64,000 nucleotides of DNA, from the IMG/VR virus record IMGVR_UViG_3300010338_000470. The stretch is one strand, 5' to 3'. Within the stretch, counting starts at the first letter, position 1; each line of letters begins with the position of its first letter. Below the pieces are notes generated by a model, which was given only the letters and a program-made list of their open reading frames with translations, was not told the DNA's origin and ran no database searches. Made by a program: the position numbers and the translations under genes. Positions 11,960 to 33,334 of the stretch are shown piece by piece. The DNA comes from a virus (taxonomy: Duplodnaviria > Caudoviricetes).

Positions 11960-12239
11960 GAAGAAATTCCCTAACGCTTGCGGGTGGTTCTGAGTCTAGC
12001 TTAAGGAGAACAGATTCTGAAACGGCAGAGGGACTGCCTTCTCCTTCGTCCCGGCAAATGGGCCTCCCGTTCTCATCTACCACAAACAGATTCAACTCAA
12101 GCTCACGATTACTCTTGAGAATTAGGCTGAAACACCTAGAGCTTGCATCACTAACCACATCAAGCCATTCAACGAACTCTGCCCTCCCAGCGATGGGAGC
12201 CAGGGGGGCTGTCAATTCATACCCCCAAATCGACGGCAT
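11928..12239 (-). CDS. Hypothetical protein
   Basis: ORF overlapping both neighbours in the operon. Confidence 0.5.
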   Translation of the reverse strand: MPSIWGYELTAPLAPIAGRAEFVEWLDVVSDASSRCFSLILKSNRELELNLFVVDENGRPICRDEGEGSPSAVSESVLLKLDSEPPASVREFLRASLFDVRPT

Positions 12240-19478: not shown

Positions 19479-19726
19479 GCTTCAGCCATTTCCGGGTGAC
19501 GTTCAATGAACTCGTCGTATCCGTCACGGTACTGTTCCACCGTGTTGGACACAACCCACCCCTTCTTGGTGTTAGAAAGAGACTGCATTCGAATGAAGTA
19601 AACCCTGGGCTTCCCAGGCTTTTCTTCTGTATCATCTTGGAATCGCATAGAGTGCCAGGCCCGACTCGAACGGGCATATCTTGGGTTGCAACCAAGCGCA
19701 TTGAGCCATCTCTGCCACTGGCACAA
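19475..19726 (-). CDS. Hypothetical protein
   Basis: Stop overlaps the def start; start uncertain. Confidence 0.4.
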   Translation of the reverse strand: MCQWQRWLNALGCNPRYARSSRAWHSMRFQDDTEEKPGKPRVYFIRMQSLSNTKKGWVVSNTVEQYRDGYDEFIERHPEMAEA

Positions 19727-19807
19727 GTTGAGCCAGTTTTGCCACTTGGCTTAGGTGGCCCCACGGTCAACGACCAGAAAACCGTGAGGACTGGGCTTAT
19801 TCCCAGC

Positions 19808-19882
19808 TGGAGCGACATGGGAGAGTCGAACTCCCTTACCCGACTTGGAAGGACGGTGCATCACCAAAAATGCTTATGTCGC
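19808..19882 (-). tRNA. tRNA-Gly (TCC)
   Basis: Cloverleaf with CCA. Confidence 0.92.
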
Positions 19883-19900
19883 ATGTGTCTAGCTTCTAGG

Positions 19901-20215
19901 TTAGCTTAGTTGAATGGCTACTGAGAAGTTGTGAAGGACAACGCAAAGGTAGACAAGAGAAATGACGAGTAGGCCGAAACCTATGAAGTCCGAATCCAGC
20001 TTGTACCCCGCCCAGACGATCAACCCGACTGCCAGCATCTTGATGCAGATGGCAAGCATCGGGGAGTGAATGAACAGGTCTGCAACGGGGTTGGCCTCAG
20101 ATCCACCGAAGGTAAAGACGAGGTGAGTGCTGAAAACATCCAAGATGTTCAACACTGCCAAAGTGAACCCTCTGGCCAGGATGGATTCCTGTGTTCTAGA
20201 CCTCAAGGCTTCCAA
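19901..20215 (-). CDS. DUF5658-like membrane protein
   Basis: LNILDVFST..GGSEANP..K..N pattern, three TM segments; TTG start after AGGAG. Confidence 0.7.
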   Translation of the reverse strand: MEALRSRTQESILARGFTLAVLNILDVFSTHLVFTFGGSEANPVADLFIHSPMLAICIKMLAVGLIVWAGYKLDSDFIGFGLLVISLVYLCVVLHNFSVAIQLS

Positions 20216-20233
20216 CTCTACTCCTTTGATGAG

Positions 20234-20315
20234 TGCGAGTGGTGGGACTCGAACCCACACATTTTTCAATAGCGGGGTTTAAATCCGCCGCGTCTGCCTA
20301 TTCCGCCACACTCGC
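20234..20315 (-). tRNA. tRNA-Leu (TAA)
   Basis: Cloverleaf with variable arm. Confidence 0.9.
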
Positions 20316-20316
20316 T

Positions 20317-20395
20317 TGGCCCCCCCGGTAGGACTCGAACCTACAACGGACGCTGGGTAGAAGCCAGCCGCTCTAATCCATTGAGCTACGGAGGG
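20317..20395 (-). tRNA. tRNA-Arg (TCT)
   Basis: Cloverleaf with CCA. Confidence 0.92.
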
Positions 20396-20590
20396 AAGAT
20401 TCAGATTCTTCGACTAACGGCCCATCAGTAATCCCAGGTAACCTGGGGCTATGGACGACGCAACGAAAATCCAGTTCGACCACAAAATCCACTTCAGCTG
20501 CAAGTGGTCGAATGTCTGACGCCATCAAGCATCCACACTCTGGATGTCGCGATTGTTTCCTGAGCACGCAGTGAACCATACCAGCGACAC

Positions 20591-20890
20591 CTACGACTGT
20601 AGAAGATCCAAAACTTCTCCCAGGGGGGCTGCACCCACAATGCGAGCGACCTCTTGCCCTTCCTTGAGAAACAGGAGAGAGGGAACCTTCTGCACCTTGA
20701 ACCTCTTGCAAAGACCTATCTCCATCTCCGCGTTTACCTTGAACAAGGGCGTCCCAGACGTGGCCTCAGCCTCTTCCAGGACAGGATTCATGGCCTTGCA
20801 GGGCGAGCACCACTCGGCCCAGAAGTCAACCAGGACAGCGTCCTGGGTCTTGATGCTTTCATCAAATGAGTCAGAAGTAAGTTCAACCAT
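20591..20890 (-). CDS. trxA: Thioredoxin
   Basis: VLVDFWAEWCSPCK..VPSLLF. Confidence 0.92.
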   Translation of the reverse strand: MVELTSDSFDESIKTQDAVLVDFWAEWCSPCKAMNPVLEEAEATSGTPLFKVNAEMEIGLCKRFKVQKVPSLLFLKEGQEVARIVGAAPLGEVLDLLQS

Positions 20891-20966
20891 GGTGCTTGAT
20901 GCAGGAATCGAACCTGCGGCCTCTTCCGTGTCGAGGAAGCGCTCTAACCGTCTGAGCTAACCAAGC
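20890..20966 (-). tRNA. tRNA-Val (GAC)
   Basis: Cloverleaf with CCA. Confidence 0.93.
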
Positions 20967-20971
20967 ATTAG

Positions 20972-21031
20972 TGGAGGAGCAAGGGAATCGAACCCTCGTA
21001 GATCGTCATCATACGTTGCCAAACGCTCCCC
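20972..21031 (-). ncRNA. Miniature tRNA-like RNA (acceptor + T arm, no anticodon arm)
   Basis: GGGGAGC..GAGGG-TTCGATT-CCCTT-GCTCCTCCA, 60 nt. Confidence 0.55.
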
Positions 21032-21033
21032 AA

Positions 21034-21397
21034 GGTGGAGGCGGAGGGAATCGAACCCTCGTCTTCCAGAGTGTACCACACGATTGTACAACCATTCCAG
21101 ATAAAGCGTTGGTCGCTTCGCAGCAAGCTGCTACCCGGACTTTCCCGAAAGTCGACGGTCTTTCCCGTTGTCAGCAGTCTTTCCAGCTGTCCTCCCCTAC
21201 TTCTGTTGCCAGGCTGTAGGAAACAGGCCCCGTGCGACCTCGCGGCTCACGTTGACTCTAGCCACTCAACCGTTAGGTCAGGCGGCTAGAGCGAACTGCT
21301 CGTTGGCGGTTCTTGTTGGTTCCCCGTTTAACGAGTCTGAGAAACTCGGGTTGAATCTAAGTGCTACAGATTCCGAAATCGAAACCTTGTCGCCCCC
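21034..21397 (-). ncRNA. ssrA: tmRNA; tag (A)ANEQFALAA at 21278-21307
   Basis: 5' GGGGGCGACAAGGTTTCGA, G3-U70, 3' TTCGATTCCCTCCGCCTCCACC; tag ORF ending LAA*. Confidence 0.96.
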
Positions 21398-21419
21398 TAG
21401 CTTCCGACAAGCGGAATAG

Positions 21420-21501
21420 TCCCCCAAGAGGGAGTCGAACCCTCACGCCCGAAGGCACCCGGTCCTAAGCCGGGCGCGTCTACCAGTTCCGCCATCGGGG
21501 G
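21420..21501 (-). tRNA. tRNA-Leu (TAG)
   Basis: Cloverleaf with variable arm. Confidence 0.92.
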
Positions 21502-21502
21502 A

Positions 21503-22077
21503 AATGAGTGTAGGGGAGCTAGGTTCAGGCTCCCCTGTCGCCACACTTTACCGGCCTGCTTAGACCTCGTGGCTTTGATCACACATCCAGGAACTACCCT
21601 TGGTTGTTATGGGGTTTGTGCGTATCCCCTTAGCCCCTACAGACTTCTTGGCATCAGCCCTGGCCGGGGCCTCATACCAGGGGGAGCGGAAATCTCCCCC
21701 TTCCCTTTACCAACGAACCTTACTCAAGGGTCCGTCCTGGGATATAACCCTACGTCTGTAGGTTAGCTCAGCATTTCCGTTTCACAGTTCAAAATGTGAA
21801 ATTCCCTATGCGTAGCGCTGAGCAGGCAGGGAGCACACCTCCTTGCGAGAGATGAGCTTTGCCACTCCGCTTTACCACCCCGATCACCCTGGCAAGGCTT
21901 TTCGAGGCTCTCTTTTCACATGCAGTGCCAGCCACATGCTCCCCCGGATTCCAGAGATGCTATCCCCGCTAAGGGTCCCTGGCGTCCGGTTCGTGGAGAT
22001 TTGGACCTAACGGCCCCGCAGAATCCTGGGAAGGATCCCGCGTATCGCAGGTTGCCCTGCTATCCGGTACTCCTCAA
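21503..22077 (-). ncRNA. Large structured ncRNA, ROOL-like (~575 nt)
   Basis: No credible ORF; many long helices with 5'/3' closure; own promoter; motifs ATGTGGCTGGCA, GATACGC, GAGGTCTAA and TAAAGTGT resemble ROOL as I recall it. Confidence 0.65.
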
Positions 22078-22128
22078 CCGTCTAACTTTTCAAGTGTCGT
22101 CCGTGGCCCCGTGGGGGCAACGGAGATA

Positions 22129-22157
22129 ACTCTACCATGTCAGTCTTCAACTTTCAA
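22129..22157 (-). promoter_or_regulatory. Sigma70-type promoter for the ROOL-like RNA/tRNA/tmRNA transcript
   Basis: TTGAAA-17 bp-(TGG)TAGAGT. Confidence 0.7.
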
Positions 22158-22307
22158 GCGAAGGCTCCAATGTTAGCTGCATCACCAAGGCTTGCAGCCA
22201 AACGCTCAGGGCATCCAGCATGCCGCCATCAAGTGGCGTTCCGTGCAGAAGTGGATGCACTAGGCTCAGGAGGCCCAAGGCCACCAAAAACAACTTGTAG
22301 GTTCGCA

Positions 22308-22382
22308 TGGAGCCGGTTGCAGGACTCGAACCCGCCCACACTGCTTACAAGGCAGTTGCTCTTCCTGATGAGCTAAACCGGC
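22308..22382 (-). tRNA. tRNA-Thr (TGT)
   Basis: Cloverleaf with CCA. Confidence 0.92.
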
Positions 22383-22388
22383 AAAACT

Positions 22389-22480
22389 TCCCAAGATGGG
22401 GAGGACTCGAACCTCCTCCTCCCCCCACCAAAGCTGACATGCAAGGGGGGTGTGCTTCCAATACACCACATATCCTGGGA
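22389..22480 (-). ncRNA. tRNA-like element with an 18-nt anticodon loop
   Basis: Normal D arm and T arm; C6/G6 stem enclosing TTGCATGTCAGCTTTGGT; irregular acceptor stem. Confidence 0.55.
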
Positions 22481-22694
22481 GCAGGTAAAGGATTTCAGAG
22501 ATGGTTCCACTGGAACATCACAATCCTCCCCCTTCCCTTACATCACAGCTAGTCCTGATTGCCTGTTGGGCCTTTAACCCAACTGGTTTCTTGTGCCTGT
22601 CAGCGTGATACAACCAGTTTTCACTGAGGTTCTTGAAAGGGTTCAGACTGGTATTTGCTCCAGTCTCCCCACCTCCTACTACCCGATACCAAAG

Positions 22695-22766
22695 CACCCT
22701 CGGAAGGACTCGAACCTTCAACTTCCTCGTTCGTAGCGAGACACTCTTCCATTGAGTTACGAGGGT
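22695..22766 (-). tRNA. tRNA-Arg (ACG)
   Basis: Cloverleaf. Confidence 0.92.
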
Positions 22767-22771
22767 TTAAG

Positions 22772-22853
22772 CGGAGCGAGAGGGATTCGAACCCCCAACC
22801 CTTGACGGGCCACCGTTTTCAAGACGGATTGGCACCCCAATGCCGGTCGCTCC
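22772..22853 (-). tRNA. tRNA-Ser (TGA)
   Basis: Cloverleaf, long variable arm, G73. Confidence 0.9.
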
Positions 22854-22894
22854 AAACTGGCTGTCGCCAGTCTACCTTGGCGATCTACGGTTAG

Positions 22895-22979
22895 CGGAAC
22901 ACCGAGGACTCGAACCCCACCCCTTGCGGGGCGCATTCCTTAGCAGGGAAGCGCGGCAAGCCTTACCGCTTGATGTTCC
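22895..22979 (-). tRNA. tRNA-Ser (GCT)
   Basis: Cloverleaf, long variable arm, G73. Confidence 0.9.
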
Positions 22980-23062
22980 AGAATGAATGCGCTGCCAGCG
23001 CTTTCCGTTGTGCACCGAAGTGCATGCAGGCCGACGGGGCACCACCATAAAATCTAGGCTTC

Positions 23063-23294
23063 GATAGTCGGGGGCGATACCCATCACTGATGGGTCATCC
23101 CACACCAACTTGAAGAAATCTACACAATCATCAACAGAACGTCCCTGAAGGTACATCTCTATACACTTGTGGACGAGAGTCCCAAAGGATGCTGCTGCCG
23201 ATTGAAGTTCTACAACGTCAGGATGCTCTTGTGCCAGCTTGTACTGTAGATTGCACTCTTGAAACTTTTTGAGTAGCGACGGATTGAACTTCAC
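23063..23294 (-). pseudogene. N-terminal fragment of a PD-(D/E)XK (RecB/Cas4-like) exonuclease
   Basis: MKFNPSLLKKFQECNLQYKL..AASFGTLVHKCIE, then runs into non-coding/tRNA sequence before any catalytic motif. Confidence 0.65.
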
Positions 23295-23602
23295 CAAAAA
23301 TCCCTCGCTGTGATAACTGATTCCCATCCATCGTATTCAGAAATGAGATAAGGCCCGTCAACCTCTACCACCTCTAAATCATCAGCCCCACCCGTGTGAA
23401 AGTGTTTCAAACCCAAATCAACCATCATCTGGATGATCAGATCATGGTGAGGGCCACTCCTTTGGCATAAATCCTTTGGGTTGCCACCCGACTCAATGAA
23501 GTCAATGATAGGCCGGTACTCAGCGATCTCTTTCCGCTTATCATCTGGTGCCCAGGTCGACCATCCAGCACCATAGCCTGTACTTACTAAAATCTTCGTC
23601 AC
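23291..23602 (-). CDS. Hypothetical phage protein
   Basis: KILVSTGYGAGWSTW..ISEYDGWESV; overlapping start/stop with neighbours. Confidence 0.75.
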   Translation of the reverse strand: MTKILVSTGYGAGWSTWAPDDKRKEIAEYRPIIDFIESGGNPKDLCQRSGPHHDLIIQMMVDLGLKHFHTGGADDLEVVEVDGPYLISEYDGWESVITARDFW

Positions 23603-23901
23603 ATCTTCTCCAAAAGAATCAACAGAAACTGGATCTCAGCATCTGAACACTCCAACACATTCACGAGCCTAGCGAACACGTTCGCTGCCGGGAAGCGAGT
23701 CGGAGTGATCGTGATATCGAAATCACGCATGCTCCCATCCTCTAGAAGGAAGCTCAAGGAAACATCCGTTGGATACGGCTCCTCCGTTCCAGCCCATCTC
23801 TCGTTGATGTACGTCTCGCTGAATCCAAGGAAAGCCTTCTGAATCACCTCGGCAACATCACTACTGAACAGTTCCCCGTCGTGCGATAACTTGTTTCCCA
23901 T
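23599..23901 (-). CDS. Hypothetical protein
   Basis: Leaderless -10 upstream; overlaps the next gene. Confidence 0.65.
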   Translation of the reverse strand: MGNKLSHDGELFSSDVAEVIQKAFLGFSETYINERWAGTEEPYPTDVSLSFLLEDGSMRDFDITITPTRFPAANVFARLVNVLECSDAEIQFLLILLEKM

Positions 23902-23983
23902 GCCGCCAACGTAGCACCCACTTCTACGTATAGGGCAGCCCTCCCCATCCTTGAGGTCGAGAGTGGTGCTACAGAACGTTCAG

Positions 23984-24066
23984 CGGTAAGAGGAGTACTC
24001 GAAACCCATGCCTAGCGACACGATCCGTTTTCGAAACGGTCCCCAGGCCTCCTGGGTTCACTTACC
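23984..24066 (-). tRNA. tRNA-Ser (CGA)
   Basis: Cloverleaf, long variable arm. Confidence 0.85.
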
Positions 24067-24070
24067 GGAG

Positions 24071-24157
24071 CGGAACACCGAGGACTCGAACCCCATGCCA
24101 TTTTTCAGACACCAACTTCTTTCCAGGAAGTGCCGACGCCTAGTCGGTTGATGTTCC
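24071..24157 (-). tRNA. tRNA-Ser (GGA)
   Basis: Cloverleaf, long variable arm. Confidence 0.9.
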
Positions 24158-24231
24158 ATATGTTCGCTTCATCCTGCGCTGATACTCCCGTTGGTACTCA
24201 CGCTCTACTGCTGGATCTGAGAATGGTATGA

Positions 24232-24591
24232 TCAGGCAGCCACCCGACGACTCAAGCCGGTGGTGTCGCCACCTCGCTTGTGACGCTTGGCGTCAGCGAA
24301 GGTCCTGACCGGGTTCCTCTTACGGATAGGGCTACACCCACAGGAATCGAAAAGGCCACGTGTCGTGCCATTGTTGGTCATGACATACAGCTTCTTCCAT
24401 TGACCCTTCTGGCTCTGGCGTGGGGCTGTAAAGTCGCGGCCCATGTTGAGCCCCTGCTTCTGACACTTCAGACAACACATTGTGCCGGTCTGGGTATGCT
24501 CACCATACTGGGAGCGCGGACCTTTCCAGGCGATGCGACAATCGAAACAAGCGTAAACGCTTCGATAGTAGTTGTAACTGTAGCGGCACAT
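24232..24591 (-). CDS. Cys-rich hypothetical protein
   Basis: YACFDCR..CLKC..MGRDFTAP..FDSCGC. Confidence 0.7.
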   Translation of the reverse strand: MCRYSYNYYRSVYACFDCRIAWKGPRSQYGEHTQTGTMCCLKCQKQGLNMGRDFTAPRQSQKGQWKKLYVMTNNGTTRGLFDSCGCSPIRKRNPVRTFADAKRHKRGGDTTGLSRRVAA

Positions 24592-24615
24592 ACCACTACA
24601 GTATCACATTCGGTT

Positions 24616-24765
24616 TCAGGCGATAGCCTTAACCTCCAAGACCTCCACTTCTGCCAGCTCATAATCTTCAAGCTGGCAAAGAATCCCGTATCTGATGACG
24701 GCTTCGTCAGGAGTCGAAGCCCTGACGACTATCGGCCCATTCGGGCCATCCAAATGCCATTCCAT
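24616..24765 (-). CDS. Small hypothetical protein
   Basis: MEWHLDGP..; AAGGA RBS. Confidence 0.5.
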   Translation of the reverse strand: MEWHLDGPNGPIVVRASTPDEAVIRYGILCQLEDYELAEVEVLEVKAIA

Positions 24766-24783
24766 GGCTATTTCCTTTCCGGA

Positions 24784-24859
24784 TGGGGCGACTGAGGAGA
24801 TTCGAACTCCCACTAACAGGGACACAACCTATCGTGCTAGCCATTACACTACAGCCGCC
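24784..24859 (-). tRNA. tRNA-His (GTG)
   Basis: G-1:C73, CCA. Confidence 0.93.
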
Positions 24860-24900
24860 ATGACTGATTTTCAAAATTTGCACCTCGTACAGGTGCATCA

Positions 24901-24973
24901 TGGTCCCCTCGGAAAGAATTGAACTCTCGTAAGCAAGTTTCGAAGACTCGCCACCGGCTCCACCGGCAAGGGG
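24901..24973 (-). tRNA. tRNA-Arg (TCG), aberrant D arm
   Basis: CGAGT-CT TCG AA-ACTTG, CCA. Confidence 0.82.
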
Positions 24974-25103
24974 ATGGCCCACCTTACGCAAGGGTTTGGG
25001 CGGGTACTGGCCTGCGATCCTGAACCCACAACTCGGGTTTGGTCCTTGCGCCAGGATTCTTCAGACTTCACCAGTATCGCTGGCTGTTGAAATCTGAAGT
25101 TCG

Positions 25104-25177
25104 CTGGAGTGGCAGGTCTCGAACCTGCAAATCCCTGATTCAGAGTCAGGTGGGTCTACCAGTTCCCCTACACTCCA
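25104..25177 (-). tRNA. tRNA-Gln (CTG)
   Basis: U1-A72, G73 cloverleaf. Confidence 0.92.
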
Positions 25178-25323
25178 ATGGCCCCTGCTTGCCTCCGGGG
25201 CGGATGGCCGCAGAAGAAGGTCCTGGGGCCGGTCTCCTAAACCCCAGGACCCTCTCTGCACGATGAGCCTAAGTGGCGATGGCCACTTGGTGCATTTAGC
25301 GCCACAGGCCCAAGCCTGTAGGT

Positions 25324-25450
25324 CCAAGCCAAGTCATATCTAGCTTCCTTGGCCTATGGGGATACCGCTAGCCCCAAAGGAGCGACAAGCACTCCTCTTA
25401 GCGGAAACCAATCCTAGCTGGTTGGCCAGGGAGTTCCTGGACTTGCTTGG
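25324..25450 (-). ncRNA. Unnamed pseudoknotted RNA candidate
   Basis: Closing helices CCAAGC-AAGTC/GACTT-GCTTGG and CCTGGCC/GGCCAAGG; loop TAGCGG complementary to upstream CCGCTA. Confidence 0.5.
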
Positions 25451-25467
25451 ATTCGGTTCCCACGAAC

Positions 25468-26013
25468 TTAACCGGAGATCGCCTCAGCTTGAAGGTTGTC
25501 GACACCGAAGAGTGGCTTCAGCAAGACTCCACAGTCCGCCAGGTTGTCAAAACCTCCCACTTGACGATCGATCACACAAAGAGCGCAATCCACGGCAGCC
25601 CCCAAGTGACGAAGGTCGCCAACTGAGGTAATGATCTGACCGCCTGAAGTTACGACATCCTCGATAACTAGAGTCTGCCTTCCTTCTACATTAAACCCCT
25701 CCACCAAGCGTTCTGTTCCGTAGGCCTTGGCCTCCTTCCGCACGAACGCCACCGGAAGGTCGGTTTCCAAGGATAACCCAACAGCGATAGGAATCCCGCC
25801 CATCTCCAGTCCAGCTAAACACTCGGTCTCATCGGGGATGAGCGAGACTAGGGCAGAACAGATACGTCGCAATAGTTCCGGGTCCGATTCAAATTGATAC
25901 TTGTCGAAGTATCGATCAGACGTGGACCCAGAGCGAAGGGTGAAGGTACCCACCGTTTCGCACCTATTGCTTAGTTGCGATCCAAGATGCTGCAAACTGT
26001 TTGTCGCCATCAA
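25468..26013 (-). CDS. pyrE: Orotate phosphoribosyltransferase
   Basis: GTFTLRSG..YFDK, FVRKEAKAYG, LVIEDVVTSGG. Confidence 0.93.
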   Translation of the reverse strand: MMATNSLQHLGSQLSNRCETVGTFTLRSGSTSDRYFDKYQFESDPELLRRICSALVSLIPDETECLAGLEMGGIPIAVGLSLETDLPVAFVRKEAKAYGTERLVEGFNVEGRQTLVIEDVVTSGGQIITSVGDLRHLGAAVDCALCVIDRQVGGFDNLADCGVLLKPLFGVDNLQAEAISG

Positions 26014-26066
26014 TCTGCTTCTCTGGAGCGGTTACTTCGAGGGCTGATCCAGCGATCAGCCATTAG

Positions 26067-26142
26067 TGGCGGGAGAGGGATTTGAACCCTCGACCTCCTG
26101 CTTATGAGGCAGGCGAGCACATCCAGACTGCTCCACCCCGCT
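26067..26142 (-). tRNA. tRNA-fMet-like (CAT)
   Basis: 1:72 mismatch, GCGGGGTGGAGCAG, TTCAAAT T-loop. Confidence 0.88.
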
Positions 26143-26253
26143 ACGCAAACTATAGCACACTGGGGTCTTCACCCGATAATCTTGGCTCATAGACAACCAC
26201 GGAGAGAGGTATCCGCTAGGATTCAAGTGGAACCCATTCAGCGAAGGAAACCC

Positions 26254-27174
26254 ATGCCTTACTTGTCTCCCACCCAAGAAGAAATAGACCTAATGACCTC
26301 TCAGCTAAGCAGTCGTCTGGGAGATGCGGAAGCGAGGCTAGAGGCTCTTGAAATCCAAGTAGCAGATTTGCTGAACTCCAGTCAGCCATCCCCGATTACT
26401 CCAACCGAATGGGGTTACAACCTTACCAGCCCCACCAACCTTGAGTCGGTGGCACTCAACTTGGGTGACCCTCAGGTTGTCAGGCTCTTTTTCTCAGGTT
26501 CTCCCGGTTCAGGGGAACCAACCTGGGCTCTGGGTAAAACCGCTATCGTTAGCTTCAAGTTCAACCCGACTCAGGCCTTCCCGGCAGAGAAGCTGCGAGC
26601 CTTCCTGGCTTCCAAGCCAGCCAACGTGAAGGCCTACGTTTGCACCTATCATGAACCAGAAGGCAACATCAGAGCGTACCAATTCACGGCAGCGCAATAC
26701 CGTGACTTCGTCACAGCAACTACTTCCGTATGCCGGGAGTTCGAGAACTGTATCTCAACCCCCATCCTCATGCAATGGACCCTAGAGTCAGCCTCCGGAC
26801 GGAACGTAAACGACTATCTTGAAGGAGTCGAATACGATGTCCTCGGATGGGACGTTTACCCAAGACTAGGAACCATCAAGGACATCCAGGCTCAGCTAAA
26901 GTCCATTCACGACGAATCCGTCAAGAGGGGTAAGCCTTGGCTTATTGGTGAAGTGGGGGCCGTGAAGTACGTCGAAGGACGCCAGTACCCCCGCCCTTCC
27001 TACACTGAAGCAGATCGGGCTGTTTGGATGCTTAACACGGTAGCCCAGATCAAGGCTCTAGCTGTCCAACCTCTGGCGGTCTGCTGGTTCACTTACCCGA
27101 CCGATGGGCACCTCTACACTCTTGAATCAGCTGAGACGCAAAACGCCATGAAGCAAATTCTTGCCAACGGGTAA
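26254..27174 (+). CDS. Glycoside hydrolase, GH26/clan-A-like TIM barrel with N-terminal coiled coil
   Basis: YHEPE (acid/base), LGWDVY, WLIGEVG (nucleophile), VCWF. Confidence 0.72.
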   Translation: MPYLSPTQEEIDLMTSQLSSRLGDAEARLEALEIQVADLLNSSQPSPITPTEWGYNLTSPTNLESVALNLGDPQVVRLFFSGSPGSGEPTWALGKTAIVSFKFNPTQAFPAEKLRAFLASKPANVKAYVCTYHEPEGNIRAYQFTAAQYRDFVTATTSVCREFENCISTPILMQWTLESASGRNVNDYLEGVEYDVLGWDVYPRLGTIKDIQAQLKSIHDESVKRGKPWLIGEVGAVKYVEGRQYPRPSYTEADRAVWMLNTVAQIKALAVQPLAVCWFTYPTDGHLYTLESAETQNAMKQILANG

Positions 27175-27175
27175 G

Positions 27176-27526
27176 GTTGAGAAGCCCTGTAGCCGGAGTT
27201 TTGTCATTTAAGACCATCATCCATCTAGGAAGAAACCATCTCCCTCCCCCTCGCGGGGGTGCACCAACCCGGTCATAATGGGCCTGGCCGACCTAGACCT
27301 ATTTGGCTTACTACAGCTGAAGTTTACTCAGCCAGGAACATTACTGCCCTGCTGGGGGTCTCTTACACCCCCTCTTCCACCTACTGACCTGTGCCCTGAG
27401 GGCCATCGGCCGTCCGTTCGCTATGCACTTGTTGTCCTCTCGCGAGGCCCGGTTTAACCCGGCAGCTTTGCCATATGTAGCTCCGAACTTCCTCTACTTT
27501 CGCAGCGATGGTCCAGGCTTCTCAAC
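27176..27526 (-). ncRNA. rnpB: RNase P RNA (type A-like)
   Basis: P1 GTTGAGAAGCC/GGCTTCTCAAC; CR-I GAGGAAGTTCGGAGC; CR-V ACAAAACTCCGGCTA. Confidence 0.93.
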
Positions 27527-27531
27527 ACTAG

Positions 27532-27615
27532 TGTCGGTAGAGGGACTTGAACCCTCACGCCCCTAAGGGCACTAGCCCCTCAAGCTAGCGCGTATACCAA
27601 TTCCGCCATACCGAC
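27532..27615 (-). tRNA. tRNA-Leu (GAG)
   Basis: Cloverleaf with variable arm. Confidence 0.92.
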
Positions 27616-27620
27616 AAGTA

Positions 27621-27694
27621 TGGTCGAGATGGGGGGAATCGAACCCCCGTCATACGGTCCCAAACCGTAAGTTCTACCATTGAACTACATCTCG
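27621..27694 (-). tRNA. tRNA-Pro (TGG)
   Basis: Cloverleaf with CCA. Confidence 0.92.
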
Positions 27695-27751
27695 TAAGGA
27701 GGAGACCCCTCAGTCTCACCACTTTGACGTTGCGGGCAGGTGACGCCCGGA

Positions 27752-27827
27752 TGGTGCGGTATGCCGGATTCGAACCGACTGTCTTCTCGTTGGCAACGAG
27801 ACGCATCGCCAGCAATGCTTATACCGC
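27752..27827 (-). tRNA. tRNA-Gly (GCC)
   Basis: Cloverleaf with CCA. Confidence 0.9.
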
Positions 27828-27832
27828 CAAGG

Positions 27833-27908
27833 TGGAGCCCGCGAAGGGATTCGAACCCCTACTTTCTCGTTACGACGGAGACGTGCTAGCCATTAACACT
27901 ACGCAGGC
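27833..27908 (-). tRNA. tRNA-Thr (CGT)
   Basis: Cloverleaf, C31-C39 mismatch. Confidence 0.87.
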
Positions 27909-27909
27909 A

Positions 27910-27986
27910 TGGAGCCCCCAGGGAGAATCGAACTCACCTCTTGTAGCGTACCATGCTACCGTGCTATCCATTACCACTATGGAGGC
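27910..27986 (-). tRNA. tRNA-Thr (GGT)
   Basis: Cloverleaf with CCA. Confidence 0.9.
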
Positions 27987-27988
27987 CT

Positions 27989-28533
27989 GACAGTGATTGA
28001 GGCTCACTGTGGGCCTGAGAACTCTCCTACCCATGGCCTTGGGTCGCCTGATTTACCTAATATCCGACTTGACGGTACTTCCCCGCCCTTTTTCAGGCAA
28101 GCGCACGGATGGAACGAACACCCGCAGGGCCGAGCACATACGATACTACGTAGCTCCCCTCAATGTCGCTAGAGGTTTCTACCATTGTACCCCACCCGCT
28201 ACGCGATTGTGTAGCAAGCCTGGTAGCAACGCATGTGCCGGGTATCGCACATGTTACCCTAGCCGGTTTTTTGTTTTACCATGGATCAGCTGTATACATG
28301 CTCGGGTTAAGAGCCCTCGCCACTGTCCAAGTTCCGTGTGACCTTCACGTTCACGTAGTTGGCTAACGTTCCATGCCCGTTATTTAATATGCTCGTTCAA
28401 GCATAACCAACTACCGCTCTGAGCCTAAGATCTCTTTGAGGTCGGACTGTCCTCACCCTACAGATGTCTTAGCATCCCTGCACTGAACGGACTGGGAGCA
28501 CAACCCGTTCCTGATTGCCCCGAAGGGCTCTCA
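27989..28533 (-). ncRNA. Large structured ncRNA, GOLLD-like (~545 nt)
   Basis: Between tRNAs, no credible ORF; more than 12 helices plus loop-loop complementarity; A-rich linkers ATTAAATAAC and GGTAAAACAAAAAACCGG and a terminal TCTCAGGCC resemble GOLLD as I recall it. Confidence 0.6.
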
Positions 28534-28536
28534 TCG

Positions 28537-28607
28537 TTCTCCGCAGAGGAATCGAACCCCTAGCTTCTGGGCCAAAACCAGACGTGTTTCCGTTACACCA
28601 TCGGAGA
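28537..28607 (-). tRNA. tRNA-Gln (TTG)
   Basis: Cloverleaf. Confidence 0.88.
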
Positions 28608-28611
28608 ATAG

Positions 28612-28683
28612 TGGAGTCGCGGGGAATCGAACCCCGATCTTCTGGTTGCAAACCAGAGGTAATGGCCCTTATACGACGACCCC
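28612..28683 (-). tRNA. tRNA-Ala (TGC)
   Basis: G3-U70, A73. Confidence 0.92.
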
Positions 28684-28686
28684 AAT

Positions 28687-28760
28687 TGGTGCACCTACGA
28701 GGAATCGAACCTCGGTCAGTCGGATGTAAGCCGACCGCTCTCCCATTAAGCTATAGGTGC
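28687..28760 (-). tRNA. tRNA-Val (TAC)
   Basis: Cloverleaf with CCA. Confidence 0.92.
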
Positions 28761-28764
28761 TCGG

Positions 28765-28837
28765 TGCGGGCACCAGGGATTGAACCTGGGTCACGCAGAT
28801 ATAAGCTGCGTGGGGGCAACCAGCCCCCCCTACCCGC
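28765..28837 (-). tRNA. tRNA-Ile (TAT)
   Basis: CGCAG-CT TAT AT-CTGCG. Confidence 0.85.
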
Positions 28838-28852
28838 TAGATTCGACCACAG

Positions 28853-28936
28853 TGGGGGCGGTGGGATTCGAACCCACAACGGTCTTTCGACGCCGAGTTA
28901 AAAGCTCGGTCCCTTCAGCCATTCGGTCACACCCCC
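28853..28936 (-). tRNA. tRNA-Lys (TTT) with long variable arm
   Basis: CCGAG-CT TTT AA-CTCGG followed by a GTC-GAAA-GAC arm. Confidence 0.85.
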
Positions 28937-29385
28937 AGAAGGCCATAAGATCTGGCCCATTTGCGAACAGCATTATCGCTGACGCCGTACTTGCTAGCAA
29001 TAGCCACCCATGACATTGATGCAATCTCCTGCCTGAGAACTTCAGGAGAAGGTCTTTCAACCTTCCGGCTAGCTATCCTAGCACATCTATCTGAACAATA
29101 CAACTTGTTCTTCGTTGCCGTACCACACCGCATGCAATCAACAGTGGGTGCTGAGTGCTTCTCTTTGTGTTGATCGACACTAAGCACTTCTAAGTTGTCC
29201 AGAGCATTGTTTGTGCGATCTTCGTCAATGTGGTGGACATGTTCATCTTCAAGAAGTGGTCGACCGAGTGCTTGCTCCATCAGATATCGAGGATACGACT
29301 GGCTCGTATAAACCCCATCATCACTGATGAGCACGACGATTAGTCGTCCTTCTTTGCCGTTGGAATACGGACCGTAGACCCTCAT
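28927..29385 (-). CDS. HNH endonuclease with C-terminal HTH
   Basis: RYLMEQALGRPL..EHVHHIDEDRTNNALDNL; KYGVSDNAVRKW. Confidence 0.9.
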   Translation of the reverse strand: MRVYGPYSNGKEGRLIVVLISDDGVYTSQSYPRYLMEQALGRPLLEDEHVHHIDEDRTNNALDNLEVLSVDQHKEKHSAPTVDCMRCGTATKNKLYCSDRCARIASRKVERPSPEVLRQEIASMSWVAIASKYGVSDNAVRKWARSYGLLGV

Positions 29386-29627
29386 GGTGAAACCTTCTTG
29401 CTGACTGGACGAATCCAGAGCGGAAGAGGAATCCAGATCCTCTCGTGGCCCTTGCCCTTGCCGAAGTCATGTTCGATCTGCACCTTATGTCTGCCCATGC
29501 AGGCGAACTTAGAACGACGTACGTTCCAATAGTGTTTTGCATTCAGAACCTTCTTGTGTTGACCTACCTTCTTATTGGCGGAAGGTACGGCGATGACTGA
29601 GAGCCATCCGGTTCTTTGGATGCGCAT
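29382..29627 (-). CDS. Basic hypothetical protein
   Basis: Stop overlaps the HNH start (ATGA). Confidence 0.55.
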   Translation of the reverse strand: MRIQRTGWLSVIAVPSANKKVGQHKKVLNAKHYWNVRRSKFACMGRHKVQIEHDFGKGKGHERIWIPLPLWIRPVSKKVSP

Positions 29628-29642
29628 GGTACCTTTCTACGA

Positions 29643-29719
29643 TGGCACGGGGGGAAGGAATCGAACCCTCGCTACACTTGGGTCAGAACCAAGCTGGCAA
29701 ACCAGCATGCCACCCCCGT
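29643..29719 (-). tRNA. tRNA-Gln (CTG), second copy
   Basis: CTTGG-TT CTG AC-CCAAG, CCA. Confidence 0.85.
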
Positions 29720-29720
29720 A

Positions 29721-29834
29721 TGGTGGTTCCGGCCGGAATCGAACCGGCAACCCCCGTCGGGGCGACATCCATGTATCTGACTACAGAAATCGGGTGCTAG
29801 GGCGGGCTTTCCCCCGCAATCCTTTCGGACCACC
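29721..29834 (-). ncRNA. Oversized tRNA-like RNA (~114 nt)
   Basis: Perfect T arm GCCGG-TTCGATT-CCGGC, 3' ACCA, enlarged D, anticodon and variable arms. Confidence 0.6.
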
Positions 29835-29839
29835 CGTAG

Positions 29840-29913
29840 TGGGCATACTCGGATTCGAACCGAGAATCCTGGAAGTTTGAGTTCCGGTGCTTTGCCAGTT
29901 AGCACATATGCCC
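29840..29913 (-). tRNA. tRNA with CAA anticodon (Leu) but a short variable loop
   Basis: GGAA-CT CAA AC-TTCC, 74 nt. Confidence 0.82.
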
Positions 29914-29914
29914 T

Positions 29915-30008
29915 AAGTTTCTCTTGCTATTCTTCCAAGTAGGCGTTTGAGCGTGACATGCGCTGTCTGGGTGGAAGCCAGGTGCTCTGCCAATTGGGCT
30001 AGACAGAC
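29915..30008 (-). pseudogene. 5' half of tRNA-Gly(TCC) fused to an HNH C-terminal remnant
   Basis: GTCTGTC-TAGCCCAATTGGCAGAGCA-CTGG CT TCC AC CCAG, then a frame reading ACHAQTPTWKN; no T arm. Confidence 0.6.
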
Positions 30009-30009
30009 A

Positions 30010-30096
30010 TGGTGCCGGAGGAGGGATTCGAACCCCCTAAGCTCAAAAGCAACTGATTTACAGTCAGCCCCAACTCACCGTCGTTGGCGCTCCGGC
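30010..30096 (-). tRNA. tRNA-Tyr (GTA)
   Basis: Cloverleaf, variable arm, CCA. Confidence 0.9.
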
Positions 30097-30108
30097 GTGG
30101 AGCGATAG

Positions 30109-30409
30109 GTACGATGGTGTGCCACATCCATGGTTCGATGTAGCGGTTAGCCCACTGCTTGTGCAGACCCAAAGGCTTGCCCTTGTCGTCAAGCGGGCCG
30201 AGCTGTGATAGCTCTCGCACACCCTCAACGCAGGCATCCCTCATGCGCAGGATGATCTCCTCAGCCTTGGCACGATCCTCGTCGGTCATGGGCGTTACCG
30301 CCTGCATGCCCGGTTGGTTATACCTATAGTCCACCGGCAAGGCTGGATCATCTTCGATCCTGCTTAGCTGCTTCCACGTTGGGATGGCTCGACTAGATGC
30401 CGAGTTTCG
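30109..30409 (-). pseudogene. thyX: Internal fragment of ThyX (FAD-dependent thymidylate synthase)
   Basis: RNSASSRAIP...NQPGMQA...LHKQWANRYIEPWMWHTIV; no start, no C-terminus; preceded by a tRNA 5' half (30410-30442). Confidence 0.75.
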
Positions 30410-30442
30410 AAGCCACTCTGACCAGACTGAGTTACACCCCCG

Positions 30443-30517
30443 TGGCGCTCTATCCGGGACTCGAACCCGATTCTCAAGCTTGACAAGCTTGGGTGGTAAC
30501 CCATACACCAATAGAGC
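30443..30517 (-). tRNA. tRNA-Asp (GTC)
   Basis: Cloverleaf, G73, CCA. Confidence 0.92.
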
Positions 30518-30519
30518 AG

Positions 30520-30768
30520 GTGCCCCCTCTCCCCTTGCTAGCAGGAGATGACTTAGGAGGACTTTTAGGTCAGTCTGGTTTCCGGTACCCTGACGAGTAT
30601 CAGTCGACAAGGCTGCCTTGCAGCGCTACAGGGACAGGCGCGTTACCTGCCATCACCGGCACACCCCTGACTTTTGGGTGCTTCGCTCTTGTAGAAGTGG
30701 ACGGGTTGGACGTTGGCGTCTCAGCCACAAGAGTACGTCGCCCCATTACCGCTGAGTCGACCCGTCAT
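30520..30768 (-). ncRNA. Unnamed pseudoknotted RNA candidate (~250 nt)
   Basis: GACGGGT/ACCCGTC, CTCAGC/GCTGAG, crossing CTCTTGT/ACAAGAG, CCGGT/ACCGG, CCCTG/CAGGG. Confidence 0.5.
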
Positions 30769-30780
30769 AGATCTATCAAT

Positions 30781-31146
30781 CTAGCCTTTCCACAAGAAGT
30801 CGGGGAAGGGCTTGAAGGTCTTGTCTTCTAAGCTATCTAGACTCCAGATCCCTTGTGGTGGGGTTAGACCCGTTCGATTGAGGCGCTCATTGACTGCCTC
30901 ATTGAATGCCTCCTTGTTCCAGTAGACACCGCTGTCGCCAGAGTACGAAAACTCTGACAGACGTATGTGTTGACCGGGGTGAGGAACAGCTTCTTCAAGG
31001 GAAGCCCTCTGGTCGAACTTGAACTTGAGTTCAATTGTCCCGGAGAGATCCACGGCTGTCACAGCTTGAGTCCCATCCTCCAAAGTTTCAACCTTCGTCA
31101 CCCAGAGGGTGCCGGGAGCGTATACCATCGTAGACATGGGGGGCAT
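30781..31146 (-). CDS. Hypothetical protein
   Basis: 121 aa ORF after tRNA-Asn. Confidence 0.6.
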   Translation of the reverse strand: MPPMSTMVYAPGTLWVTKVETLEDGTQAVTAVDLSGTIELKFKFDQRASLEEAVPHPGQHIRLSEFSYSGDSGVYWNKEAFNEAVNERLNRTGLTPPQGIWSLDSLEDKTFKPFPDFLWKG

Positions 31147-31169
31147 CTTAACACCCCTAACTACAGAAG

Positions 31170-31242
31170 CTCTGGGACCAGGATTCGAACCCGGAACTTT
31201 CGGGTAACAACCGAACGCGTTCGCCATTTACGCCATCCCAGA
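31170..31242 (-). tRNA. tRNA-Asn (GTT)
   Basis: U1-A72, G73. Confidence 0.92.
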
Positions 31243-31293
31243 ATGGTTCCGGTCTCTCCCGGATGTCAAACCACTCACGCAGGTTTCGCCTCG

Positions 31294-31367
31294 TGGTTCC
31301 TCTCAGATTCGAACTGAAGCCTCTGGGTCTTCACGCCAGCGTGCCATTCCAACTACACCAAAGAACC
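31294..31367 (-). tRNA. tRNA-Phe (GAA)
   Basis: Cloverleaf, C31-C39 mismatch. Confidence 0.85.
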
Positions 31368-31368
31368 A

Positions 31369-31453
31369 TGGTACTCCTGGGGGGAGTCGAACCCCCACAC
31401 CCGAAGGCAACTGAGTTTGAATCAGCCGCGTCTGCCAATTCCGCCACAGGAGC
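31369..31453 (-). tRNA. tRNA-Leu (CAA), canonical
   Basis: Variable arm, CCA. Confidence 0.92.
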
Positions 31454-31463
31454 ATGACTGAAG

Positions 31464-31532
31464 CGCCCTTGCCCAGAGTCGAACTGGGTCAACTTGCTTA
31501 GGAGGCAAATGTCGGTATCCCACCGCAAGGGC
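31464..31532 (-). tRNA. tRNA-Arg (CCT), aberrant D arm
   Basis: TTTGC-CT CCT AA-GCAAG, 69 nt. Confidence 0.8.
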
Positions 31533-31542
31533 AGTTGTTTAG

Positions 31543-31614
31543 CACCCCCACGGGGATTCGAACCCCGTTCTCGGACTTGAAAGGACCACGTCTTAACCCA
31601 TAGACCATGGGGGC
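31543..31614 (-). tRNA. tRNA-Glu (TTC)
   Basis: Cloverleaf. Confidence 0.9.
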
Positions 31615-31649
31615 AAGTTTGTGTGGTCCGGTTTTCAGAGCCACACTAG

Positions 31650-31722
31650 TGGGTGTGAGAGGATTTGAACCTCCACCAATCGGGTAAGAGCCGATCATGC
31701 TAGCCGTTAACACCACACACCC
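31650..31722 (-). tRNA. tRNA-Lys (CTT)
   Basis: Cloverleaf. Confidence 0.92.
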
Positions 31723-31881
31723 ATGAGTTGACCGCATAAAGTGCACTTGCGGCCAACTTATCATCGCGTAGGGCATTTGAGCCCCCCACTCGGCTCCGGC
31801 TGTCTATTCGCTGTTCCTCGGCAGCTAGCCGCCCTAACCCCTAGGAGGATGAATCCTGTGGGAGGGGAGGATTTTCTTGCG

Positions 31882-31954
31882 TCGGCATGGAGAGAGTTGA
31901 ACTCCCATTTCGACCTTATCAGAGTCGCGTCTTAAACCGTTGGACCACATGCCG
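31882..31954 (-). tRNA. tRNA-Ile (GAT)
   Basis: Cloverleaf. Confidence 0.9.
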
Positions 31955-32004
31955 TAGTGTCGGATTGGGATGACTTTCCCTCAAGAAGTCCGACAGCTCC
32001 TTTG

Positions 32005-32091
32005 TGGGGGTGAGAGGATTCGAACCTCCTGAAGCCTTTCGGGCCAGCAGGGTTACAGCCTGCCCCAACTCTCCAACGTTGGCGCACCCTC
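32005..32091 (-). tRNA. tRNA-Tyr (GTA), second copy
   Basis: Cloverleaf, variable arm. Confidence 0.88.
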
Positions 32092-32094
32092 ATA

Positions 32095-32340
32095 GGTGCG
32101 CGGATTCTCTCTGGATACCGCGTAGGTCACACAACTTTGCCATGTGTCGGCTCCGATACTCTATCGGTAGTACCTGGCCAACTTGCGAAGAAGGTCAGGA
32201 TGGAGGTTCCGTGCCGGTGGGAAGGAGTGTACGTCCTGCCCATTCGCTCCGACTCTAGTTCCCCTTTTCGGGGCGCTACCCCGACATCGAGTCCAATTTC
32301 TGTCGACTTACTCCAGGCTTGGACTAGGCCTAGAACTGGA
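32095..32340 (-). ncRNA. Unnamed multi-hairpin RNA with a kissing loop
   Basis: Adjacent hairpin loops AGTCCAA and TTGGACT are complementary; at least 6 further hairpins. Confidence 0.5.
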
Positions 32341-32343
32341 TCA

Positions 32344-32418
32344 TGGCACCCGATGGGAGAGTCGAACTCCCGCTTCTTGACTGAGAATCAAGCGTCACTA
32401 CCGCTAGACCAATCGGGC
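32344..32418 (-). tRNA. tRNA-Glu (CTC)
   Basis: Cloverleaf with CCA. Confidence 0.92.
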
Positions 32419-32569
32419 ATGCGAGGGAGTGTCACCTCCCCCGTTGCAGAAGTTGTCTCTCTTCTCTTGCCTGATTGGATATGGTCCAGTCAGGAGGACC
32501 CTTCACCCACATCAAAGTCGGGTGTCAACGCTTTCGCGACCACTTACTATCTTTGGGCCAAAGCCCTAG

Positions 32570-32640
32570 CACGCCCTGGAGGAATCGAACCCCCGCCTTA
32601 ACTGGTTTGGAAGCAGTTTGGTCACCATGACCTAAGGCGT
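32570..32640 (-). tRNA. tRNA-Trp (CCA)
   Basis: Short D arm, C31-C39 mismatch, G73. Confidence 0.82.
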
Positions 32641-32649
32641 ATATGTTGT

Positions 32650-32723
32650 TGGCAGGAGTGCAGAGAATCGAACTCTATCGACAAGGGTTTTGGAGACCCT
32701 CCGGCTACCTCAGCCTCACTCCT
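32650..32723 (-). tRNA. tRNA-Trp (CCA), second copy
   Basis: A1-U72, G73, CCA. Confidence 0.9.
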
Positions 32724-33057
32724 AAGTTCTACTACCCCAAGTGCGTTCCCTGTGACAATTAGCGCAGACTACATCACACTTGTCTATCTCTTCGTTGAGC
32801 TTCTTCCACGAACCTCGTTTCATCAGCGTGTTGATTACGCCAGTCTTCTCAGCGGGATCACGATGATCGAAGTCCATTACATGTGGTGGGTAAGCTACCC
32901 CACAGTCCATGCATGGTTCCGACTTAAGCTGATTGACGTAATCTTTCATCTTCTGGTACTTGATGCGGTTTCGCTCGTAGTACTGTTCTCGATTTTCTCT
33001 GTAGTGATTCCTCCTAGAAGCTCTTGCCCGTTCATCTAACGGGTCCTTGTAGGCCAT
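32722..33057 (-). CDS. HNH endonuclease
   Basis: PCMDCG..MDFDH..KCDVVCANCHRERT. Confidence 0.88.
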   Translation of the reverse strand: MAYKDPLDERARASRRNHYRENREQYYERNRIKYQKMKDYVNQLKSEPCMDCGVAYPPHVMDFDHRDPAEKTGVINTLMKRGSWKKLNEEIDKCDVVCANCHRERTWGSRT

Positions 33058-33064
33058 GTTGCTG

Positions 33065-33093
33065 ACCTTACCACGCATTTCTTCATTTGTCAA
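33065..33093 (-). promoter_or_regulatory. Promoter at the head of the tRNA array (leaderless HNH)
   Basis: TTGACA-17 bp-TAAGGT, ATG 7 nt downstream. Confidence 0.75.
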
Positions 33094-33305
33094 GTCTGTG
33101 TTTGAAGTCACAGCGAGGGAGAGGTCCAGGTGGCCTGGAGTCCGCTTCTACCTACCTAGGTTCGCTGCTTCAAACGTTGATTCAGCTACCCTGGGCGGGA
33201 GCAAACTCTTGGGCAATCAACCAATTGCCTGGGAGTGAGCGCGACGTCGCCACCTGCTCGGAGCGCTTATAGGCTCTCAGTGTGGATTTCGTCGCCATGT
33301 CAAAA

Positions 33306-33334
33306 ACTATAGCACACCCATCTACGCAAGTCAA
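33306..33334 (-). promoter_or_regulatory. Promoter preceding a 38-codon leaderless ORF
   Basis: TTGACT-17 bp-(TGC)TATAGT. Confidence 0.65.

Follow-up and report, generated by a model that had tools for sequence, protein, structure and literature searches.

A block of about 14 kb in a 64,000-nucleotide (nt) stretch of viral DNA (IMG/VR record IMGVR_UViG_3300010338_000470; Duplodnaviria, Caudoviricetes), referred to here as the window, holds about 40 transfer RNA (tRNA) genes, a transfer-messenger RNA (tmRNA) gene, an RNase P RNA gene and a conserved, folded RNA of ~600 nt. Two results are of value, namely a conserved phage gene for the RNase P ribozyme that lies inside an operon of its own substrates, and a new ornate RNA of 600 nt that is tied to tmRNA. 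The explanation of the block as a whole that we favor, with moderate confidence, is that it constitutes a phage translation-support RNA module, in which precursors would be processed by RNase P and which includes an RNase P RNA of its own and a new large RNA. A sequence-only reading of the same DNA had described positions 19808-33334 as a single island combining these genes with two giant RNAs and several unnamed RNAs; its observations are partly confirmed and its interpretation is partly supported by the analyses below. The three RNAs that distinguish the island from an ordinary tRNA cluster are:

27174-27524, minus strand: RNase P RNA, bacterial class A (145.4 bits, full model)
21502-22122, minus strand: large RNA of ~600 nt, conserved core 21534-22105 (nhmmer homologues, covariation)
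21033-21397, minus strand: one-piece tmRNA with the tag ANEQFALAA (ARAGORN, Rfam)

The island belongs to a tailed phage and recurs in diverged relatives

The window comes from an uncultured tailed phage of ~150 kb, as judged from flanks that encode a tail tube, a tape measure, an intein-bearing ribonucleotide reductase, DnaB, SSB and an endolysin; UvrD, a dCMP deaminase, a peptide deformylase and an ArfB-like RF-1 domain protein are encoded there as well. Seventeen metagenome contigs, the longest of 149 kb, carry the sequence at 99.8-100% identity, and neither a near relative of the window nor a near match to the island was present among 50,697 GenBank phages. Related phage contigs, gathered using a 306-amino acid (aa) island protein and UvrD as anchors, revealed similar islands with 19-44 tRNAs in five diverged lineages (L007/L015, L008/L013, L010, L011 and L017). 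Each of the five has an RNase P RNA, and those with a long enough stretch have tmRNA as well. In L016, L018 and L019, the search within 10 kb of UvrD revealed none of the three special RNAs, and a UvrD-based scan of IMG/VR returned nothing.

Given that tmRNA and RNase P RNA are cellular housekeeping genes, the island might be of bacterial origin and have entered a phage contig by misassembly, or it might be the flank of a prophage. This is hardly conceivable, because phage genes flank the same arrangement on either side in 17 independent contigs, which come from several samples, diverged relatives carry syntenic islands, and the motifs of the clade were not found in GTDB genomes.

An RNase P RNA gene inside a tRNA array

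RNase P RNA counts as a housekeeping ribozyme of cells, and our literature searches found no published description of a phage-encoded one. The window contains, as the sequence-only reading had proposed, a full-length class A gene, which scores 145.4 bits against the RNaseP_bact_a model (RF00010; gathering score 100) over model positions 1-367. The predicted RNA has P1, P4 with a bulged U, P13, P14, P15-P17 and P18, with short P3 and P12. The two P4 strands, AGUUCGGAG and CUCCGGCU, pair with one U bulged; L15 keeps GGU, which we take to pair with the CCA of tRNA, and CGGGUU is invariant there in five lineages. Like bacterial rnpB (M1 RNA), the phage RNA thus fits the full model above the gathering score. 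Unlike rnpB, it is phage-encoded, sits inside a tRNA operon and has a short P3 and P12, a variant P4 and altered J11/12 and J12/13 regions, the latter being conserved within the clade. The P4 of the clade reads GAGGAAGUUCGGRG with CUCCGGCU, so that both strands departed together from the bacterial consensus while the bulged U was retained.

The gene is present in five related lineages (L007, L008, L010, L011 and L017). The copies in the first four, which were scanned with Rfam, score 142-160 bits, and that of L017 is cut off by the end of the locus, leaving full-length genes in the window and four lineages. An alignment of these contains 103 predicted pairs, 29 of them compensated, and the RNase P RNA is under purifying selection in the related phages. 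Neither IMG/VR nor any of 185,579 bacterial and archaeal GTDB genomes contains a 19-mer specific to the clade, which argues against a recent pickup from a host, and no distant match to the RNA was found in GenBank phages. The pattern points to a functional gene with a long history in phages.

RNase P RNA genes among viral tRNAs also appear to be more widespread. Of 20 loci found by scanning IMG/VR for the canonical P4, 16 have RNase P RNA genes. At least eight lie in a dense tRNA array, the viral contigs concerned being 30-463 kb long, and the large RNA is missing from all of them. Six huge contigs (L023, L027, L029, L031, L037 and L038) resemble the window in carrying the gene within a dense, co-oriented tRNA array and differ from it in having a canonical P4 and scores of 208-300 bits. 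The large RNA and the two small RNAs described below (A and B) were not found in these six, nor was tmRNA in the stretches examined. RNase P RNA genes in viral tRNA arrays point to a general strategy in which a phage brings along the enzyme that matures its own tRNAs.

Ribozyme activity of the RNA from the window is not certain, because of its lower model score and its departures in P4 and J11/12-J12/13. The gene could instead be a decaying copy of host origin, or a decoy that titrates the host RnpA protein, with no working ribozyme in either case; the short P3 and the absence of a visible phage rnpA would suit such a view as well. We nonetheless consider it unlikely. The RNA is full-length in the window and four lineages with 29 compensated pairs, the variant positions are invariant across lineages, with both P4 strands changed together, the clade motif is missing from all 185,579 prokaryotic genomes, and other huge viral contigs also keep RNase P RNA genes in their tRNA arrays.

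A structured RNA of about 600 nt at the head of a putative tRNA-Leu/tmRNA operon

The stretch at 21502-22122, one of the two giant RNAs of the sequence-only reading, proved to be conserved. Homologues were found using nhmmer in L011 (E = 5e-71), L013 (2e-52), L015 (2e-151) and L017 (9e-168), giving five copies, one per lineage and counting the window. These homologues have 61-67% identity to the window copy, and the lineages that carry the RNA are given as 61-69% identical to the window. All five show the same order: an extended -10 element, TGnTA(G/T)AGT, is followed by the large RNA, one to three tRNA-Leu genes and tmRNA. RNAalifold applied to four sequences predicted 133 pairs, 44 of them compensated, with 94.9% of cells paired; shuffled alignments gave 20.9 compensated pairs, with none of 500 shuffles reaching the observed value on any measure, and just 3-9 remained when the partners were slid. 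With five sequences, the alignment yielded 162 pairs, of which 48 were compensated. Some unpaired blocks, up to 37 nt in length, are invariant as well, and the fold of the RNA has a z-score of -3.4.

There was no sign of coding: substitutions showed no codon periodicity, no sense open reading frame (ORF) exceeds 55 aa, and gene callers placed no gene at this locus in the relatives. No Rfam model matched, ROOL and GOLLD included, at E ≤ 10 with lax filters on 21480-22320, and its most conserved motifs were absent from IMG/VR, where two were sought, and from GTDB genomes and GenBank phages. GenBank phages also yielded no distant match to the RNA. A motif scan of JGI metagenomes gave a sole match, L014, which has no similarity to the window and was taken as chance. 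On this comparative sequence evidence, 21502-22122 is a real structured RNA of a new family.

The accompanying tmRNA, which the sequence-only reading had recognized correctly, scores 99.8 bits (RF00023; gathering score 47) and has a tRNA-like domain and a tag frame encoding ANEQFALAA followed by a stop; the tags in relatives are ANEQFALAA, ADEQFAVAA and ANTQFALAA. In two relatives, ~100 extra nt separate the large RNA from the first tRNA-Leu (L015 6207-6318 and L017 ~16321-16431), and the hairpins in these insertions end in CCACCA or CACCA and may be tRNA-like minihelices.

The large RNA, the orphan spacer and the ROOL and GOLLD families

The sequence-only reading had labelled its two giant RNAs ROOL-like and GOLLD-like. 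The second corresponds to the following feature:

27987-28535, minus strand: orphan 549-nt spacer, the proposed GOLLD-like RNA

Neither label could be upheld. On 21480-22320 and 27980-28540, neither model gave a match at E ≤ 10, so that membership of ROOL (RF03087) or of GOLLD (RF01998, with its conserved 3' domain) is not supported. Over 14-35 kb, Rfam at E ≤ 1 detected nothing besides tRNA, tmRNA and RNase P, and no relative had a ROOL match at the gathering score. Compared with shuffled sequence, the 549-nt spacer has the better fold (z = -3.3). Searches of the relatives, Rfam and GenBank phages gave no homologue, and a strain variant of the same phage, L005, lacks 299 nucleotides of the spacer (28139-28437). 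With no relatives on which covariation could be scored, it does not qualify as a large ornate phage RNA, and it is probably a dispensable, unverified spacer. Of the two giant RNAs claimed, one therefore stands as conserved and the other is an orphan that varies between strains.

ROOL and GOLLD are phage RNAs often located near tRNA islands (bioRxiv 10.1101/2024.12.08.627333), and the sizes of the two spacers (~600 and 549 nt), their phage origin, the tRNA-island setting and the fold z-scores of -3.4 and -3.3 would all suit members of these families, acting as RNA cages that store or protect tRNAs. We regard this as very unlikely in view of the absence of model matches, both on the individual stretches at E ≤ 10 and over 21 kb at E ≤ 1, and of the lack of homologues and the 299-nt strain deletion of the 549-nt stretch. 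The proposed coordinated role in tRNA storage or protection is speculation.

In our reading, the 600-nt RNA is instead a new large ornate RNA, comparable in kind to ROOL and GOLLD by size and context. As in those families, it exceeds 500 nt, is highly structured with support from covariation, lacks an ORF, is phage-borne and lies beside tRNAs. In contrast to them, it fits neither model and is tied to a tRNA-Leu and tmRNA operon; the host range is probably different as well, judging from a G+C content of 54% and a proteobacteria-like tmRNA tag. The RNA adds a family to the few large ornate phage RNAs known, and its fixed link to tmRNA offers a concrete experimental handle. A bolder proposal is that it represents a third, independently evolved large ornate class, acting with the phage tmRNA, tRNAs or RNase P ribozyme in a phage-borne, largely RNA-only system of translation maintenance. 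Such a reading is doubtful; if true, the RNA at the head of the tRNA-Leu/tmRNA operon could, for example, act in infected cells as a cage or scaffold that supports ribosome rescue or the handling of tRNAs.

A more prosaic possibility is that the non-tRNA spacers, the 600-nt RNA included, are functionless transcribed spacers or leaders that are degraded after processing. Such a fate is likely for the 549-nt orphan, as it is for those spacers of 350-650 nt that are not conserved. As an account of all the spacers it appears improbable, because the large RNA keeps its 133-162 predicted pairs, 44-48 of them compensated, at 61-69% identity to the window, and has invariant unpaired blocks and a conserved promoter of its own, and because small RNA A is conserved in four lineages.

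tRNA genes and layout of the island

ARAGORN detected 40 RNA genes in the window, every one on the minus strand, with 38 tRNAs and the tmRNA lying within 19808-32723. Rfam supported most of the tRNAs and added tRNA-like genes at 22393-22475 and 30013-30096, giving 40 tRNA genes in this interval, in agreement with the ~40 claimed from the sequence alone; two further tRNAs lie just outside the island, at 19650 and 14974. The island set covers all 20 amino acids. The co-orientation reported by the sequence-only reading was borne out, and so were the frequent short spacers (given as 1-10 nt; spacers of 1-14 nt are common between neighboring tRNA genes) and the many tRNAs without an encoded CCA, which is present in 17 of the 41 tRNA and tRNA-like genes checked. 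The tRNA genes are arranged as follows:

32569-32723, minus strand: two tRNA-Trp genes (ARAGORN, Rfam)
31169-32418, minus strand: tRNA-Glu, Tyr, Ile, Lys, Glu, Leu, Phe and Asn, with small RNA B included
29643-30517, minus strand: tRNA-Asp, the tRNA-like gene 30013-30096, tRNA-Leu and tRNA-Gln, plus a 346-nt spacer
28536-28936, minus strand: tRNA-Lys, Ile, Val, Ala and Gln, with spacers of 2-14 nt
27531-27986, minus strand: tRNA-Thr, Thr, Gly, Pro and Leu, ending 6 nt before the RNase P RNA
26066-26142, minus strand: tRNA-Met, directly after promoter P2
24070-25177, minus strand: tRNA-Gln, Ser, His and Ser, with a 49-aa protein gene and a 119-aa ORF between them
22308-22979, minus strand: tRNA-Ser, Ser, Arg, the tRNA-like gene 22393-22475 and tRNA-Thr
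21419-21501, minus strand: tRNA-Leu(tag), directly 3' of the large RNA (ARAGORN)
19650-20966, minus strand: tRNA-Val, Arg, Leu, Gly and Cys, with two spacers of 350-494 nt

Some of these genes are unusual. The tRNA at 28852-28936 is a Lys(ttt) with a long variable arm, the tRNA-like gene at 22393-22475 was detected by Rfam only, and the 93-nt Ser(gga) call at 24901-24993 overlaps a possible compact Arg(tcg), a situation also seen in L008 14870-15014. Between the tRNA genes, Pfam at E ≤ 0.1 detected nothing in a 203-aa ORF that overlaps 30097-30442. Strains of the same phage also differ here: a 155-nt duplication lies at tRNA-Asn (L003 14597-14698 compared with window 31166-31220), and L005 has lost an HNH region and gained an 858-nt insertion with a 184-aa ORF (L005 16470-17327). 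The island is a hotspot for insertions and deletions among these strains.

Promoters, transcription units and proposed processing

Three candidate promoters stand at the starts of putative transcription units:

33306-33334, minus strand: promoter P1 on the upstream border of the island, TTGACT-17-TATAGT with an upstream TG
26149-26157, minus strand: promoter P2, extended -10 element TGCTATAGT, directly before tRNA-Met
22129-22157, minus strand: promoter P3, TTGAAA-17-TAGAGT with an upstream TG, before the large RNA

The extended -10 element of P3 is conserved in five lineages. Four minus-strand sites carry the motif TGNTAKAGT: those at 33306, 26149 and 22129, and a further one at 6249, which precedes the reductase gene outside the island. 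The promoters that the sequence-only reading had placed at 33.3, 26.15 and 22.14 kb coincide with such sites, whereas its fourth, at 33.07 kb, is plausible only, the candidate being TTGACA-17-TAAGGT at ~33.09 kb before an HNH gene. Terminator-like sites on the minus strand of the island are few and weak, and an opposite-strand gene for a GH26-like protein lies between the first unit, whose last gene is that of the RNase P RNA, and the second.

Polycistronic precursors in which tRNAs act as punctuation, as first proposed from the sequence alone, are a plausible reading of this layout, given the co-oriented tRNAs, the short spacers, the scarcity of terminators, the promoters at unit starts and the non-tRNA RNAs bounded by tRNAs. 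We infer that at least three minus-strand units would start from the extended -10 promoters (33.3, 26.15 and 22.13 kb) and yield long precursors. RNase P would then cut at the 5' end of each tRNA and of tmRNA, dissecting these transcripts; where a spacer is very short, the same cut would also set the 3' trailer of the upstream gene, and ~60% of the tRNAs would need CCA added by a host enzyme. The same cuts could release the non-tRNA RNAs, that is, the large RNA and the two ~150-nt RNAs. With its own promoter and a 3' end produced by the cut at tRNA-Leu, the large RNA would always be co-transcribed with tRNA-Leu and tmRNA.

The phage class A RNase P RNA, itself 6 nt behind a tRNA within a precursor, would most likely assemble with the host RnpA protein, since no rnpA motif was seen in the window; motif scans of these 64 kb likewise found no smpB and no CCA-adding enzyme. 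An RNase P RNA of its own would keep processing capacity high at a time when ~40 phage tRNA genes become active and the host makes less RNA.

Several points weigh against the explanation of the island as an RNase P-processed translation-support module. The promoter motif is just modestly enriched, with five occurrences against 2.1 expected, and 4 of 100 shuffles reach five. The covariation of the large RNA was counted on the same alignment that yielded its structure. The RNase P RNA scores 145 bits, compared with 208-328 bits in most IMG/VR examples, and departs from the consensus in P4 and J11/12-J12/13; no rnpA was seen within the one 64-kb window, which was covered by motif scans and, in part, by Pfam.

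The T4 tRNA cluster provides a useful comparison. There, eight tRNAs and two small stable RNAs share a single precursor, from which RNase P and other host nucleases liberate them; T4 is wholly reliant on host RNase P, and homing endonuclease genes lie within the cluster. The island likewise mixes tRNAs, non-tRNA RNAs and homing endonuclease genes, and differs in having ~40 tRNAs, a tmRNA, a ribozyme gene of its own and a 600-nt RNA. During T4 infection, few host RNAs remain stable, and rnpB RNA and SsrA belong to these (PMC9697503), which fits a dependence of tRNA-rich phages on both.

Small RNAs and protein genes in the gaps

The several unnamed RNAs of the sequence-only reading were borne out for two conserved inter-tRNA RNAs of ~150 nt; several others turned out to be protein genes:

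32419-32568, minus strand: small RNA A, ~150 nt, between tRNA-Trp and tRNA-Glu (four lineages)
31723-31880, minus strand: small RNA B, ~150 nt, between tRNAs (conserved in L013)

Small RNA A has nhmmer E-values of 1e-11 to 1e-39, 8 of 35 pairs compensated and no Rfam match. For small RNA B, 9 of 29 pairs are compensated in two sequences, from the window and L013. At least ten plausible protein genes lie within the island, which is therefore not made up of RNA genes only:

32722-33111, minus strand: HNH homing endonuclease gene, likely ATG start at 33057 (PHROG HNH endonuclease, E = 7e-30)
28927-29627, minus strand: 81-aa ORF and HNH_3 endonuclease gene (Pfam HNH_3, E = 1e-7; absent from L005)
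26254-27174, plus strand: 306-aa GH26-like protein gene adjoining rnpB (Shine-Dalgarno sequence and ATG)
25468-26013, minus strand: phosphoribosyltransferase gene (Pfam E = 5e-7, PHROG E = 2e-16)
24619-24765, minus strand: conserved 49-aa protein gene (tblastn 65% identity; nhmmer in all relatives)
22872-23901, minus strand: three small overlapping ORFs, the last a PD-(D/E)XK nuclease fragment

Two candidate RNAs were rejected on this basis. A 1,031-nt gap beside rnpB, considered as a giant RNA, is filled by the plus-strand GH26-like gene, and the conserved block at 24611-24780 encodes the 49-aa protein. The GH26-like protein has homologues at 55-68% identity, and its structure matches GH26 with a TM-score of 0.70-0.77. 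Beside its gene and within the island, relatives encode RtcB with or without an RNA ligase (L007 11371-12540, L008 11404-13529 and L011 11251-13068). Neither was found in the window by tblastn, so that tRNA repair genes come and go in this clade.

Outside the island, window 12208-12585 (minus strand) encodes the ArfB-like RF-1 domain protein, with 50% identity to the copies in relatives; this protein, tmRNA and the peptide deformylase (19011-19478) jointly suggest a wider ribosome-rescue and translation toolkit. The phage also carries many selfish elements, comprising three HNH genes and inteins with LAGLIDADG domains in the ribonucleotide reductase (window 1641-6209) and in an 1807-aa protein (36252-41675). 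Finally, ~190 nt between P1 and the first HNH gene (window 33112-33305, minus strand) are conserved at the DNA level in L013 and L015 and could be a leader or another small RNA.

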